Below, one piece after another: positions 1-62,145 of a stretch of DNA of 64,000 nt. A program made the translations under genes and the position numbers. Positions within the stretch are counted from its first letter, which is position 1. Every line of letters begins with the position of its first letter. Source of the stretch: a virus (Duplodnaviria; Caudoviricetes); the IMG/VR virus record IMGVR_UViG_3300032116_000009, one strand, 5' to 3'. The notes beneath the pieces are model-generated. The model worked only from the letters and a program-made list of their open reading frames with translations. It did not search any database and was not told the DNA's origin.

Positions 1-1200
1 TGGTGTAAATTTTGTATTTGCATTGAATCCAGCTCTTTGCGCTCTTTCCAATAGATATTGGGGCATTTGTTGATATCTACCAATTGCTCCTCGTGCGTTT
101 TTAGCCAACCACCCAATCGTTTGCTCTGTAGCCTTACCGGGAGTTTTTCCTGCACTTGTATTAAAACTATCATATCCTTCCGGACCTTGTTCGACTGAAG
201 CAATAAGATCTAATACCCCCTTTTCTCCAGTCGTAGTAACACCAGGTGATCCAGAAACACCAGGTGCTCCAGGTGCTCCTGTAGCTCCTCGAGCTCCATC
301 TTTCGCTTGTGTAGATGTGGATTTTCCTCCTCCAGGTTGTTGTTTTGATGGTCTCGTTGATAATGACTTTAGAACAGCAGAAAATCTATCTAATATTGCA
401 TTAAACTTGTCTAGTAATGGTCCAGATAATCCTTCACCAGTTTCTCCCATTAACTGAGGTTGAACTCCACCGCCAACGTCTTGAAGAGCATTGGTCACCA
501 TTGCTCCAGTGCCTGCACCAGCAAGAGCAGCACCACCCAACATTAATCCAGGGCGTCTTCTCATAGACCTTAATATTCCAGTGTTTCCCGCTCTTTTTAA
601 TGGTGGGCCTGGAACTTTAACATCCAAATCTATTCCACCACCTCCTGCATTAGCTGTAGGTAGATTGGAAAGTTGATCGACTATTCTTATAATTGTTTGA
701 CGAATGCTTTTAGCGACTTTGAAAGTTTCATCGAATACTTTCCTGAGTTCTACTAAACTTTCATTTAGACTTTTTATATTATTTGGATTTGCAAAAAATC
801 TTATATATCCAATTGCTTTATCATATAAACTCAAGAAATTGGATAAAATTTTATTCGGAGCGTTTGCATCAATAGAATCTGTTTTAGAAATAAATCTATT
901 TTGTAAATCTCCTACAGTTTTTTGAACAATCTGATTTACATTTTGAGTTATTGCTTGTACTCTATTCTCAACATTGTTTAAAATATTTGATGATAAAGTA
1001 TTAATGATCGAACCAAGATCTGGAACTTGTGGAGCAACTCCAGCAGTTCCTCTTTGAAATCCTACAATTTTGTTAGCAGCACTAGCAACCACAGAAGATC
1101 CAAGAGGAGAACCACCAGAAATAAAGTTCTGAACTGCTTCTGGTGTAACTCTACGTTCTCTAGCAATAACTCCTGGATTTAGTGGTGATTTAATTGCCAC
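1..1200 (-). CDS. Virion structural protein (tail/baseplate hub region) with lysozyme-like domain; partial, runs off the left edge
   Basis: GTG at 1200 overlaps the gp51 stop and the frame stays open to base 1. My translation near the edge reads LDLIASVEQGPEGYDSFN...GAIGRYQQMP, resembling lambda-lysozyme/lytic transglycosylase motifs. Absent from the ORF track because the stop lies outside the window. Confidence 0.65.
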   Translation of the reverse strand, partial: MAIKSPLNPGVIARERRVTPEAVQNFISGGSPLGSSVVASAANKIVGFQRGTAGVAPQVPDLGSIINTLSSNILNNVENRVQAITQNVNQIVQKTVGDLQNRFISKTDSIDANAPNKILSNFLSLYDKAIGYIRFFANPNNIKSLNESLVELRKVFDETFKVAKSIRQTIIRIVDQLSNLPTANAGGGGIDLDVKVPGPPLKRAGNTGILRSMRRRPGLMLGGAALAGAGTGAMVTNALQDVGGGVQPQLMGETGEGLSGPLLDKFNAILDRFSAVLKSLSTRPSKQQPGGGKSTSTQAKDGARGATGAPGAPGVSGSPGVTTTGEKGVLDLIASVEQGPEGYDSFNTSAGKTPGKATEQTIGWLAKNARGAIGRYQQMPQYLLERAQRAGFNANTKFTP

Positions 1201-15817: not shown

Positions 15818-15912
15818 TTTGCCCCTACTAATTGTGCAAGTTGAGCTTGATAACGACGATCTTGTTTTTGTTTTTGTTCTTTAATGAGTTGTAGGAAGTT
15901 AAGTTTTTTCAC
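15814..15912 (-). CDS. Small basic peptide (MKKLNFLQLIKEQKQKQDRRYQAQLAQLVGAK)
   Basis: GTG start overlaps the DUF4278 stop (GTGA) and has a GGAGG SD. Confidence 0.55.
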   Translation of the reverse strand: MKKLNFLQLIKEQKQKQDRRYQAQLAQLVGAK

Positions 15913-16067
15913 TTCTGCACCTCCATGTTTTTGCATGGACGATACGCTACTCCACGATATGTATTTTGTGGATGAGCAGGAGCGTGTGTTTTGTTATACC
16001 AAGACACATACTCTTTCTTTGCATCTTCAGTGTCGTACTGACACCCTCTATAAACGACTTTAGACAT
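15909..16067 (-). CDS. DUF4278-family small protein
   Basis: Two YRG motifs (VVYRGCQY...TYRGVAY), the DUF4278 hallmark; AAGGAG SD at 16073-16080. Confidence 0.8.
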   Translation of the reverse strand: MSKVVYRGCQYDTEDAKKEYVSWYNKTHAPAHPQNTYRGVAYRPCKNMEVQK

Positions 16068-16097
16068 TAGGGTTCTCCTTAATTTTGAGGCTAAAGA

Positions 16098-16270
16098 GCG
16101 TTCCTTCAGTCGGCTTTTGCGTCTATAAAGCAACCTTTTTTAGTTACTTGTTTAACCTCCCAAACTATATCATTTCTTTGTTGAGCGTCCAATTTTGGAT
16201 GGGTAATTACCCTCCCAATAATAAAATTGGCCTGAAGACAAGTTAAAAGGAATGCTTCCATAGATGAACG
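16098..16270 (-). ncRNA. glnA-type (glutamine) riboswitch aptamer 2 with a 133-nt P2 loop
   Basis: P1 CGTTC/GAACG; P2 TCTAT (16264-16260) pairs with ATAGA (16126-16122); junction CGCAAAA-AGCCGACT-GAAGGAACGC resembles the glnA motif 3' half. Confidence 0.7.
16106..16261 (-). CDS. Small C-x35-C protein nested in aptamer 2
   Basis: MEAFLLTCLQANF...KKGCFIDAKAD (51 aa); AUG in the P2 stem, stop in the aptamer 3' half. Confidence 0.65.
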   Translation of the reverse strand: MEAFLLTCLQANFIIGRVITHPKLDAQQRNDIVWEVKQVTKKGCFIDAKAD

Positions 16271-16273
16271 ATC

Positions 16274-16519
16274 CGTTCCGAGTCGGCTTACTTCCGTCCT
16301 ATTCAGTTTTAGCACTTATTGACAACATCCTTTCGGAGTTCTAATAGCAATCGGTCTTCTACTCTTTGAATAACTACATCGTCGTTTTTAACGATGTCCA
16401 TTAGTTCCCACGCTGCGTCACAACTTATACTCACAGGAAATGACTTTGGTTGTGGCGTAGAAACAGAAAGAAGTGGAACCCATGCCAAAAGCAAAAGTGC
16501 CTTAGTCATAGGATGAACG
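16274..16519 (-). ncRNA. glnA-type (glutamine) riboswitch aptamer 1 with a 205-nt P2 loop
   Basis: P1 CGTTC/GAACG; P2 TCCTAT (16513-16508) pairs with ATAGGA (16302-16297); CGGAAGTA junction as in the glnA motif; only 3 nt from aptamer 2. Confidence 0.72.
16309..16509 (-). CDS. Small C-x35-C protein with hydrophobic N-terminus nested in aptamer 1
   Basis: 66 aa ORF starting in the P2 5' strand and otherwise contained in the P2 loop; signal-like LLLLAWVPLL. Confidence 0.65.
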   Translation of the reverse strand: MTKALLLLAWVPLLSVSTPQPKSFPVSISCDAAWELMDIVKNDDVVIQRVEDRLLLELRKDVVNKC

Positions 16520-16529
16520 TTAGAGGATT

Positions 16530-16559
16530 ATTATACCTCTATTCATACTATCTATGCAA
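16530..16559 (-). promoter_or_regulatory. Sigma70-type promoter for the riboswitch/DUF4278 operon
   Basis: TTGCAT-N18-TATAAT; predicted TSS about 16522, just before aptamer 1. Confidence 0.65.
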
Positions 16560-16566
16560 GTTATTT

Positions 16567-16582
16567 TGTATTATTTGTTACA
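16567..16582. promoter_or_regulatory. NtcA binding site
   Basis: TGTA-ACAAATAA-TACA on the minus strand, the exact cyanobacterial TGTA-N8-TACA consensus, just upstream of the -35 box. Confidence 0.75.
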
Positions 16583-38324: not shown

Positions 38325-38397
38325 TGGAGAATAGGGGACTCGAACCCCTCACCCCTGCCGTGCAAAAGCAGTGCTCTACCAAATGAGCTAATTCCCC
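38325..38397 (-). tRNA. tRNA-Ala(UGC)
   Basis: GGGGAATTAGCTCA...CTGCT-TTTGCAC-GGCAG...GTTCGAGTCCCCT-ATTCTCCA forms a cloverleaf; CCA not encoded. Confidence 0.92.
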
Positions 38398-42418: not shown

Positions 42419-42512
42419 AGTAGGACCATCAGGGAAATGGTGGTGATACTATGTTCCCGCCACCCTCAGGCAGGATATGAGAGACGTTTTTATACTCCCC
42501 ATAGGTCTCGGT
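42419..42512 (-). ncRNA. PhotoRC-II-like structured 5' UTR of phage psbA
   Basis: CCGAGAC...GTCTC hairpin, ATCC-GCC-TGAGG-GTGGC-GGA region and CACCACCATTTCCCTGATGGT. I recall this as the conserved cyanophage psbA leader; an Rfam scan is needed. Confidence 0.65.
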
Positions 42513-42562
42513 TAGTGGGAGTTCGACAATGTTACGAGAACTTTTGGTTTCGTAACATTTGT

Positions 42563-61049: not shown

Positions 61050-61195
61050 TAACTCAGGCTCGCCACCTATTCTTTTTGACGAACGGAAAAATAGGAAACC
61101 GTTGCAGATGCTCCGCACCAGTTGGCATATTTAAAGACCCTTACCAACGGGGTCAGAATGGGTCATTGACTCCACCACCTAGTTTACCAAACTAG
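61050..61195 (-). ncRNA. manA/wcaG-class cyanophage structured RNA
   Basis: Hairpins CTAGTTT/AAACTAG and GACCC/GGGTC; interleaved AACGG/CCGTT and CCTATT/AATAGG pairings (pseudoknot); two UGGYG copies; upstream of a WcaG-family gene. Family assignment is from memory. Confidence 0.6.
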
Positions 61196-61997: not shown

Positions 61998-62070
61998 TGC
62001 TGGTTGAGGGGATCGAACCCACCTGAGACCGATTATGAGTCGGGCGCTTTCACCAGATAGCTAAACCAGC
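61998..62070 (-). tRNA. tRNA with CAU anticodon (elongator Met or lysidine Ile2)
   Basis: GCTGGTT acceptor, CCCGA-CTCATAA-TCGGT anticodon arm and GTTCGATCC T-arm. Confidence 0.88.
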
Positions 62071-62073
62071 AAG

Positions 62074-62145
62074 TAGGACTGCAGAGAATTGAACTCTGTT
62101 CACACCGTTATAAGCAGTGGGCCTTAACCAATAGGCGACAGTCCC
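62074..62145 (-). tRNA. tRNA-Ile(UAU)
   Basis: GGGACTG/CAGTCCT acceptor, CACTG-CTTATAA-CGGTG anticodon arm and CAGAG-TTCAATT-CTCTG T-arm. Confidence 0.85.

Follow-up and report, generated by a model that had tools for sequence, protein, structure and literature searches.

In a 64,000-nucleotide stretch of DNA from a T4-like cyanomyovirus (IMG/VR record IMGVR_UViG_3300032116_000009; this whole stretch is referred to as the window), two glutamine-aptamer cores of the glnA type (RF01739) were found on the minus strand between 16519 and 16098, followed by a DUF4278/IF17-like gene. Each core carries an open reading frame (ORF) within its P2 stem. With a probability of about 0.68, we consider the two cores to be one large glnA-class leader, in which they share a single P3 helix, the P2 loops hold translated genes, and ribosomes on these genes compete with folding of the sensor. 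The anatomy of the leader, its conservation, its covariation and its coding signature were observed directly in the window and in related loci. Viral loci were obtained by a pattern scan of viral contigs for the junction, which gave at least 118 loci; the pattern fixes the junction and the 3-nt linker. Among the matches listed, long-insert loci comprised 30 distinct first-core and 58 distinct second-core inserts, and 87 distinct inserts remained for later counts after leaving out one locus (L087, with a 515-nt loop and a 12-codon frame).

Aptamer cores and the genes nested in their P2 stems

In the order of the RNA, the leader reads CGUUC-A-UCCUAU, ORF1 (66 aa), AUAGGA-CGGAAGUAAGCCGACUC-GGAACG and a GAU linker, and then CGUUC-A-UCUAUGGA, ORF2 (51 aa) and UUUAUAGA-CGCAAAAGCCGACUGAA-GGAACG-C; a hairpin of anti-Shine–Dalgarno (anti-SD) and Shine–Dalgarno (SD) sequences and a 52-aa DUF4278-like gene complete it. 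Read directly on the minus strand, the 5' half of core 1 consists of CGTTC (16519-16515), A and TCCTAT (16513-16508), and its 3' half of ATAGGA (16302-16297), ACGGAAGTAAGCCGACTC and GGAACG (16279-16274). The GAT linker (16273-16271) leads to the 5' half of core 2, with CGTTC (16270-16266), A and TCTAT(GGA) (16264-16257), whose 3' half comprises (TTT)ATAGA (16129-16122), ACGCAAAAGCCGACTGAA and GGAACG (16104-16099). All letters quoted for the two units in the original prediction, which had been made from the sequence alone, were present on this strand.

The outer P1 5' strand CGUUC (16515-16519) and the junction A at 16514 are invariant in all loci. The P2a 5' strand UCCUAU (16508-16513) holds the A and U of the ORF1 start codon; ORF1 (66 aa plus stop, 16309-16509) is nested in the P2a loop, and the P2a 3' strand AUAGGA follows at 16297-16302, a pairing kept elsewhere as UCC/GGA, UCCAA/UUGGA or UCUCAUGCU/AGUAUGAGA. 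Similarly, the P2b 5' strand UCUAUGGA (16257-16264) holds the AUG of ORF2 (51 aa plus stop, 16106-16261), which encodes a two-Cys peptide nested in the P2b loop, and the P2b 3' strand UUUAUAGA (16122-16129) covaries with it. The loop of P2a measures 205 nt; that of P2b measures 133 nt with a 5-bp stem, or 127 nt with an 8-bp stem including G-U pairs. It had been predicted that both start codons begin in the last two bases of a P2 5' strand and that each insert is an ORF. For ORF1 these two bases are the A and T of its ATG, and the ATG of ORF2 lies inside the 8-bp stem. One point needs a small correction, as ORF2 extends past its loop and reads on through the P2 3' strand and the core. Its C-terminus, ..DAKAD-stop, is encoded by GACGCAAAAGCCGACTGA, so that its last six codons (D-A-K-A-D-stop) are the last two P2b 3' bases, the junction strand J2 and the second strand of P3.

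We infer that this leader belongs to the glnA class (type 1) of glutamine riboswitches and would bind glutamine. Both copies of each strand of P1 (CGUUC/GAACG) and the junction A are present in the window, and the letters of the outer core, ACGGAAGUA in core 1 together with GAAGGAACGC at the last strand, match the consensus. Short-loop cores at nine sister loci score 35.4-42.7 bits with RF01739 (cut-off 35), and 47-57-nt single-core matches reach 35-40 bits; these relatives are the natural equivalent of deleting the insert and rescoring. The second core of one of them (L105), whose 3' half is identical to that of the second core of the window, scores 40.1 bits. A deposited 'glnA riboswitch' feature is also found at the homologous place in the record of phage S-CREM1. 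Passing short-loop loci and the S-CREM1 annotation both uphold the prediction of glnA-type cores upstream of a DUF4278 gene.

The P2 stems are kept by compensatory changes across the inserts. For P2b, 32 distinct strand pairs flanking inserts of 113-183 nt were compared; each of positions 1-5 is paired in 28-32 cases, positions 3-5 show three or four pair types, and none of 10000 partner shuffles reached the observed pairing. This covariation couples the letters before the ORF2 AUG with the codon before ...DAKAD, for example UCUAU with AUA (Ile), UCCCA with UGG (Trp) and UCCUCA with GAG (Glu). Among short-loop relatives (alignment A4, n = 25), all four P2a pairs and three of the four P2b pairs change on both sides. 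Covariation of P2 across homologous cyanophage loci, which the original prediction had proposed to look for, is thus present, strong in P2b and weaker in P2a. Its claim that P1 and P2 of each unit pair across the insert is supported for P2, but not for P1 within its own core, as the linchpin and P3 evidence below indicates.

Predicted folding agrees with these stems. The mean probability of P2 closure was 0.66 and 0.89 for natural inserts, compared with 0.32 and 0.31 after mononucleotide shuffling. In the 469-nt leader of the window, pairing probabilities were 0.94-0.98 for P2a over its 205-nt loop and 0.81-0.97 for the first five pairs of P2b. A circular permutation, with the 3' strand of the core-1 P2 pairing with the 5' strand of the core-2 P2, was considered and rejected: the nested pairing was longer in 54 of 58 loci, and the permuted pairing reached at most 2 bp in 21 loci.

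Both nested ORF families look coding when their sequences are compared. One ATG-to-stop frame is present in all 30 distinct first-core inserts, where it fills the loop in 29 (the exception being L087), and in all 58 distinct second-core inserts. Their start codons stand 3-6 nt after CGUUCA, and their ends lie in the 3' half or no more than about 11 nt from it. In both families, column entropy is highest at the third codon position, followed by the first and then the second. The median ratio of nonsynonymous to synonymous substitution rates (dN/dS, NG86) is 0.33 for ORF1 and 0.55 for ORF2, and lies below 1 in 92-100% of pairs, which answers the earlier proposal to look for selection on the nested ORFs. 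That each P2 stem encloses a real small ORF is accordingly borne out by the covariation, by the coding signature and by recurrence in many phages. The 3' half of each aptamer had further been noted to be stop-free in the frame of the next ORF (from GTG 16315 and TTG 16133). These extensions are not conserved: the phase of the ATG relative to CGTTCA varies, and in-frame stops interrupt the upstream extension in 18 of 58 ORF2 loci and 68 of 85 DUF4278 loci. Judged by this comparison, they are put down to chance.

The C-x35-C spacing first noticed in both window peptides was recovered (C30/C66 in ORF1, C8/C44 in ORF2). In the ORF1 family (alignment A1, 28 sequences), both Cys are invariant together with three other residues besides the start Met; in the ORF2 family (alignment A2), two Cys about 35 residues apart are the sole invariant residues besides the start Met. 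AlphaFold2 predicted a helix-loop-helix for both peptides, with helices 30-41 and 48-65 in ORF1 (pLDDT 72) and 8-19 and 26-38 in ORF2 (pLDDT 86), one Cys starting the first helix and the other placed at or just after the end of the second. By eye, the N-terminus of ORF1 looks like a signal peptide. The two families were aligned Cys to Cys by hhalign (67.5% probability, E 5e-5), which makes the proposed paralogy of the peptides plausible and stops short of proving it.

ORF2 falls into phrog_504 (E 2.8e-5 for the window), as do 47 of 56 relatives (best E 5.2e-25). No PHROG profile matched ORF1 of the window; only the ORF1 subtype found in phage P-SSM4 and its like matches phrog_6471, and its stop codon is the UAA of ...AAGUAAGCC. 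A Pfam search of ORF1 and ORF2 returned nothing, the best hit of the ORF2 family in a PDB profile search had an E-value of 0.18, and a protein atlas search with ORF2 gave unnamed clusters only. These family and structure searches suggested no function for the nested peptides.

Probable pairing between the two cores

The solved aptamer contains a linchpin pair between G23 and C60, as quoted in PMC6212724; G23 is letter four of ACGGAAGUA, and C60 directly follows GGAACG. With X and Y denoting these two positions, cellular aptamers with X = G have C as the base after GGAACG in 98 of 100 cases. When the positions of both cores are read as X1, Y1, X2, Y2, the 86 distinct phage loci show G,G,C,C (45 loci, window included) or C,G,C,G (41 loci) and nothing else. 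It follows that X1 pairs with Y2 and X2 with Y1, across the cores. The X1-Y2 pair is Watson-Crick in all 86 distinct loci (G-C in 45, C-G in 41; on A4, GC in 19 and CG in 6) and X2-Y1 is always C-G, whereas pairing within each core would give G.G and C.C in 45 of the 86 loci, the window among them. In the window, X1 is G at 16294, Y1 is G at 16273, X2 is C at 16119 and Y2 is C at 16098.

An inter-core helix of eight positions was also identified, in which AGCCGACN of the junction strand J1 runs antiparallel to MGCCGACU of J2, before the last GAAGGAACG. It has six Watson-Crick pairs and two A.C mismatches. Its last position (N-M) is U-A in 60, G-C in 8 and A-U in 5 cases with one exception (73/74), and on A4 it is GC in 14, UA in 8 and AU in 3. 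The distribution of these pair types cuts across both linchpin classes, and the helix is maintained or strengthened where J2 reads GUUGAC or GUUCGC. Taken together, the covariation of the linchpin and of the inter-core helix indicates that the cores share P3 and are interlaced. In the window, both strands of the shared P3 read AGCCGACU, the first at 16281-16288 and its antiparallel, covarying partner at 16108-16115. The register of J1 with J2 proposed by RNAalifold (AGU with ACU) was set aside: its pairs are nearly invariant, with no compensatory change, and the covarying register was preferred. In a marine subgroup (L009, L013, L022, L032, L043, L106 and others), GUUGAC or GUUCGC replaces GCCGAC in the second P3 strand; ORF2 then ends in ..DAQVD or ..DAEVD, and a P3 A.C mismatch becomes A-U.

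The interlaced structure accounts for the alignment of short-loop relatives almost completely, with 99.7% of its cells paired on A4, compared with 24% for the linchpins of a tandem reading. Without guidance, RNAalifold paired the first CGUUC with the last GAACG in these 25 relatives and formed a hairpin from the middle GAACG-GAU-CGUUC. This inner P1 hairpin (16266-16278 in the window, with Y1 as a loop base) also appears in the minimum-energy fold of the window. For one locus (L116), the best Infernal alignment fitted a single aptamer across both cores, with P3 carrying a 46-nt insertion. The consensus letters are split between the cores in the same sense, with ACGGAAGUA in core 1 only and GAAGGAACGC at the far 3' end, in core 2, only. 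In the window, the core-1 junction ACGGAAGUA (16289-16297) matches the Rfam consensus, and GAA, the outer P1 3' strand (GGAACG, 16104-16099) and Y2 (together 16098-16107) match the family consensus GAAGGAACGC; the core-2 junction ACGCAAA (16116-16122) departs from ACGGAAGUA. The local P3 hairpin of RF01739 is absent, and the inner core occupies the place of the P3 loop. Insert modules are shuffled across both linchpin classes, which follow the platform class.

The simplest fold consists of two three-way junctions placed head to head on a shared P3, each with P1, A, P2, ACGxAA.. and P3. The most likely partner of the first CGUUC is then the last GAACG, at a distance of about 415 nt. The original prediction had drawn two independent tandem aptamers; as the linchpin is Watson-Crick only across the cores and the inter-core helix covaries, that drawing is probably wrong.

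Expression platform, operon and distribution

The expression platform (16075-16098) has an anti-SD strand, CUCUUUAG (16098-16091), which starts with Y2 and pairs with UUAAGGAG (16082-16075). Across loci, RNAfold predicted an anti-SD hairpin of 7-8 bp in the main platform class (CUCUUUA with UAAGGAG), with Y2 as its first base. Platform switching through a Y2 held in the anti-SD helix would fit the model for the gifB riboswitch of Synechocystis, by analogy.

The downstream DUF4278/IF17-like gene (15909-16067, minus strand; 52 aa plus stop) has the SD AAGGAG and two YRG motifs. Its product scores 21.8 bits (E 2.5e-4) against Pfam DUF4278 (PF14105; cut-off 25.3 bits) and matches phrog_5049 with E 1.4e-11. 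For sister loci, 32 of 35 downstream proteins match DUF4278 at E ≤ 0.01 (best 2.9e-7), and Y6-R7-G8 and Y37-R38-G39 are nearly invariant in the family. On the same strand follow a Lys/Gln-rich ORF of 32 aa (15912-15814, in GTGA overlap with the DUF4278 gene), a hydrophobic ORF of 29 aa (15817-15728, ATGA overlap) and an intrinsic terminator (15721-15700); by tblastn, 32 sister loci carry the 32-aa peptide and 10 carry the 29-aa one.

Upstream of the leader lies a sigma-70-type promoter, TTGCAT-18 nt-TATAAT (16530-16559, minus strand), of a conserved pattern: TTGNNN-16..19-TANNNT ends 7-10 nt before the first CGTTCA in 100 of 113 distinct upstream regions. The -35 element of the window has three of six consensus matches, and a simple promoter scan did not list the window promoter. 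Transcription is predicted to start at about 16520-16523, a few nucleotides before the first CGUUC; given the conserved spacing, the RNA should begin almost at P1. An NtcA-type box, GTA-N8-TAC, was read directly at 16568-16581 on the same strand, 8 nt upstream of the -35 element. It is conserved: of 113 distinct upstream regions, 94 have GTAN8TAC no more than 130 nt ahead of the first CGTTCA, mostly at -58 to -62, and in most loci the box ends 8 nt before the -35 element. Relative to the classical activating position, its centre is shifted upstream by about one helical turn. From these sequence elements, the operon may read 2-oxoglutarate (via NtcA) besides glutamine.

Elsewhere in the window, the Rfam and window scans gave a PhotoRC-II RNA (79 bits, 42441-42534), a wcaG RNA (42.6 bits, just over the cut-off, 61052-61156) and three tRNA genes (38325-38397 and 61998-62145), all on the minus strand. 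The ORFs adjoining the riboswitch locus are presumably thyX and speD, which their translations resemble by eye. The records nearest to the window are Synechococcus and Prochlorococcus phages of the Kyanoviridae, and near-identical DNA comes mostly from freshwater metagenomes.

The layout recurs in phages P-SSM4 and P-HM1, where ORFs in both loops are annotated as hypothetical genes; their deposited annotation has no riboswitch feature at the locus, and Rfam was negative for the homologous place of both. Among the at least 118 viral contigs, short and ORF-bearing loops occur in all four combinations. In DSL-LC03, for example, the first loop is short and the second holds an ORF, and in S-CREM1 the same halves stand at the homologous place, with GAAA and 6-nt loops replacing the ORFs, upstream of the same gene family. 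The presence or absence of inserts is mosaic among close relatives. A short hairpin module, UUCGCUAUU..AAUAGCGAA, occupies P2a in one set of phages and P2b in another (L105, L115, L118, L015, L047 and L062 compared with L113, L005, L010 and others), a placement that suggests recombinational exchange between the two pseudo-repeated cores. At L087, the apparent 515-nt 'loop' goes with what looks like a third CGTTCA and an additional core-like 3' half ahead of the usual pair, a hint of chains with three or more cores.

In RNA libraries of two studies, contigs span ORF1 and its two flanking halves (16234-16533) as well as ORF2 and its own two (16097-16292), which is evidence of presence only; parts of the stretch are uncovered, and contig ends near 16519-16533 are not readable as transcript ends or as absence. 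In the RNA-library runs X15 and X18, from the same communities, 16123 is joined to 16263 through 8-9 other letters. By their sequence, these contigs are ascribed to co-occurring relatives in which a short P2b loop replaces ORF2.

In cellular genomes, at least 120 loci were found among the matches listed, with the 5' half within 60 nt in 104 of 126 matches. No ATG-initiated ORF was found in the 73- and 83-nt P2 loops of L131 and L190, the long-loop cases among the at least 120 cellular loci listed. Both are cyanobacterial metagenome-assembled genomes (MAGs), and their long P2 loops fold as extended hairpins, indicating that P2 tolerates expansion outside phages.

Proposed regulatory model and relation to known systems

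The AUGs lie in the P2 5' strands, and the end codons of ORF2 are letters of the core and of P3; ribosomes and folding would therefore exclude each other on these letters. On this layout we build a model in which glutamine binding, competition with ribosomes and the direction of regulation are inferred. The outer core would be formed by the first CGUUC, P2a, ACGGAAGUA, the shared P3 and the last GAAGGAACG-C, and the inner core, at the far end of P3, by the GAACG-GAU-CGUUC hairpin as its P1, P2b and ACGCAAA. P2a and P2b would point away from the cores, each with a loop that encodes a two-Cys helix-loop-helix peptide. Ribosomes translating either of these genes would block folding of the sensor, and the folded sensor would hide both nested AUGs. 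Glutamine would stabilise the fold, fix the X1-Y2 pair and draw Y2 from the anti-SD helix, turning on translation of the IF17-like protein as in the gifB analogy. Low glutamine would then yield the nested peptides, and high glutamine would shut the nested genes and yield the IF17-like protein. The strongest form of this model, a glutamine toggle between two protein outputs on one mRNA in which ribosome traffic on the nested genes sets whether the sensor forms, is offered tentatively and is somewhat doubtful.

Several observations weigh against the model. RF01739 gave no match in the window, neither at the gathering cut-off (35 bits) nor at E ≤ 10, owing to the 127-205-nt inserts, and the assignment to the class is thus based on homologous short-loop relatives. 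In core 2, ACGCAAA and a C in place of GAA before its GGAACG deviate from the consensus, and this core may be unable to bind glutamine. The P1 strands are invariant in all loci, so that the CGUUC-GAACG partners are deduced from neighbouring pairs. The X1-Y2 pair has two states that track the class of expression platform, and few evolutionary events may underlie the 86 loci, which moreover were fetched by a pattern that fixes the junction. For P2a across long inserts (15 distinct pairs), 521 of 10000 shuffles reach the observed value, which is weak, and the dN/dS of 0.55 for ORF2 reflects only moderate constraint. Finally, the UGA of ORF2 lies 9 nt before the anti-SD strand; a ribosome terminating there could open the SD at any glutamine level and blur the reciprocity of the two outputs.

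The main rival, which we regard as unlikely, is that the nested ORFs are passenger genes: the sensor would control the DUF4278 gene only, and the P2 loops would be tolerant sites where genes are gained and lost by recombination between the repeated core halves, with no regulatory coupling of their translation to glutamine sensing. The mosaic of inserts among close relatives, the UUCGCUAUU... module in either P2a or P2b, the cellular P2 loops that reach 73-83 nt with no ORF and the RNA-library contigs of one community that replace 16123-16263 by short loops are all as such genes would leave them. Tolerant sites alone, however, leave unexplained that the start codon always lies inside or at the end of the P2 5' strand with the stop in or near the 3' half, that six ORF2 codons are shared with the core and P3, and that natural inserts favour P2 closure far above shuffled ones; if the ORFs are translated, the physical overlap makes some interference unavoidable.

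Two independent tandem aptamers, with non-interacting cores and each P1 formed by a CGUUC and the GAACG that comes after it, are improbable. The P1 strands fit either way, single sister cores pass Rfam alone (47-57 nt, 35-40 bits), and tandems of this kind exist in cellular SAR86 genomes. But linchpins kept within each core would have to be G.G and C.C in 45 of 86 loci, the window among them, and only 24% of them pair on A4, the J1-J2 helix covaries, the consensus letters are split between cores, and the cellular tandems differ in having 6-9-nt linkers and a G-C linchpin of their own in five of six cores. There is very little to recommend the view that the inserts are non-coding, structured expansions of P2 with untranslated ORFs. 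Cellular cyanobacteria do carry long non-coding P2 extensions; against this, one ATG-to-stop frame persists in 87 of 87 distinct inserts despite length changes, the codon-position pattern is of the coding type with dN/dS below 1 in 92-100% of pairs, both Cys are invariant, and ORF2 is modelled with a pLDDT of 86. The least probable alternative, that the aptamers are dead and their halves kept for another reason (intergenic processing or ribosome loading) with complementarity as a relic, agrees with the lack of an Rfam match in the window and conflicts with the equal conservation of the halves in insert-bearing and intact loci, the compensatory P2 changes across inserts and the linchpin and P3 covariation that holds in long-insert loci too.

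The layout matters in several respects. Covariance-model scans rely on the usual view of aptamers as compact non-coding domains, and surveys miss loci such as these, where a validated sensor class retains its core and its stems extend across whole genes. Ribosomes and ligand-dependent folding would have to compete for the same RNA, and the interlaced fold changes how the 'tandem' phage glutamine riboswitch is to be drawn. The locus also suggests that the phage may control nitrogen assimilation of its host by way of an IF17-like protein, and it draws attention to two peptide families; all of these stand behind an NtcA-type box. Should the toggle prove true, aptamer stems that enclose translated genes and are gated by them would be a new regulatory principle, and surveys based on covariance models would count too few riboswitches wherever a loop carries cargo.

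Glutamine riboswitches are a known class, and they are known to occur in cyanophages. Like the type 1 riboswitch of the Synechocystis gifB leader (Klahn et al. 2018, PMC6212724), the phage leader combines a CGUUC/GAACG P1 and its junction A with a covarying P2, ACGGAAGUA, GAAGGAACG-C, the G-C linchpin and a DUF4278/IF17-like gene downstream. In both, the anti-SD overlaps the linchpin C, and for gifB it was proposed that this C and its neighbours mask the ribosome-binding site until glutamine binds. The phage leader differs in that a two-stranded helix into a second core replaces the P3 hairpin, that whole genes sit in the P2 loops, with paired strands 133-415 nt apart, and that Rfam has no match in the window. 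The 'tandem' glnA RNA of S-CREM1 (OP535465) is homologous to the window locus, with near-identical halves, the same 3-nt linker, the same platform class and the same downstream family; in place of ORF1 and ORF2 it carries a GAAA loop and a 6-nt loop. The S-CREM1 paper (PMC9964418) presents a plain glnA cis-regulator and, in the passages searched, mentions neither interlacing nor nested genes, and a survey of phage genomes gives a riboswitch in two isolates only (PMC9004378). In the passages searched, the literature on glnA RNAs, their tandems and their phage copies (Weinberg 2010, Klahn 2018, S-CREM1, a methylophage) contains no P2 genes and no interlaced fold. The original prediction was aware of no description of the nested-ORF architecture, and none was found in the searched literature; to the same extent, both the genes nested in the stems and the double core with its shared P3 are undescribed.

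Tandems in SAR86 MAGs (L148, L173, L195) resemble the phage loci in having two glnA-type cores in a row upstream of one gene, but they have 6-9-nt linkers, a G-C linchpin of their own in five of six cores, their own P3 hairpins and no ORF. Group I and II introns are ribozymes that carry homing-endonuclease or maturase genes in peripheral loops while their core is kept. In contrast, the phage leader is a ligand sensor, and its ORFs overlap paired strands and core letters. The nearest precedent appears to be Mycobacterium tuberculosis, for which translated upstream ORFs within glycine, cobalamin and YdaO aptamers are reported (D'Halluin et al., bioRxiv 10.1101/2022.06.01.494293); they are the subject of one closing remark with no detail, their effect on the riboswitch being still under study. 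Translation and aptamer folding use the same letters in both systems, whereas in the phage leader genes of 50-70 codons, conserved at the protein level, fill the loop of a hairpin that still closes around them.

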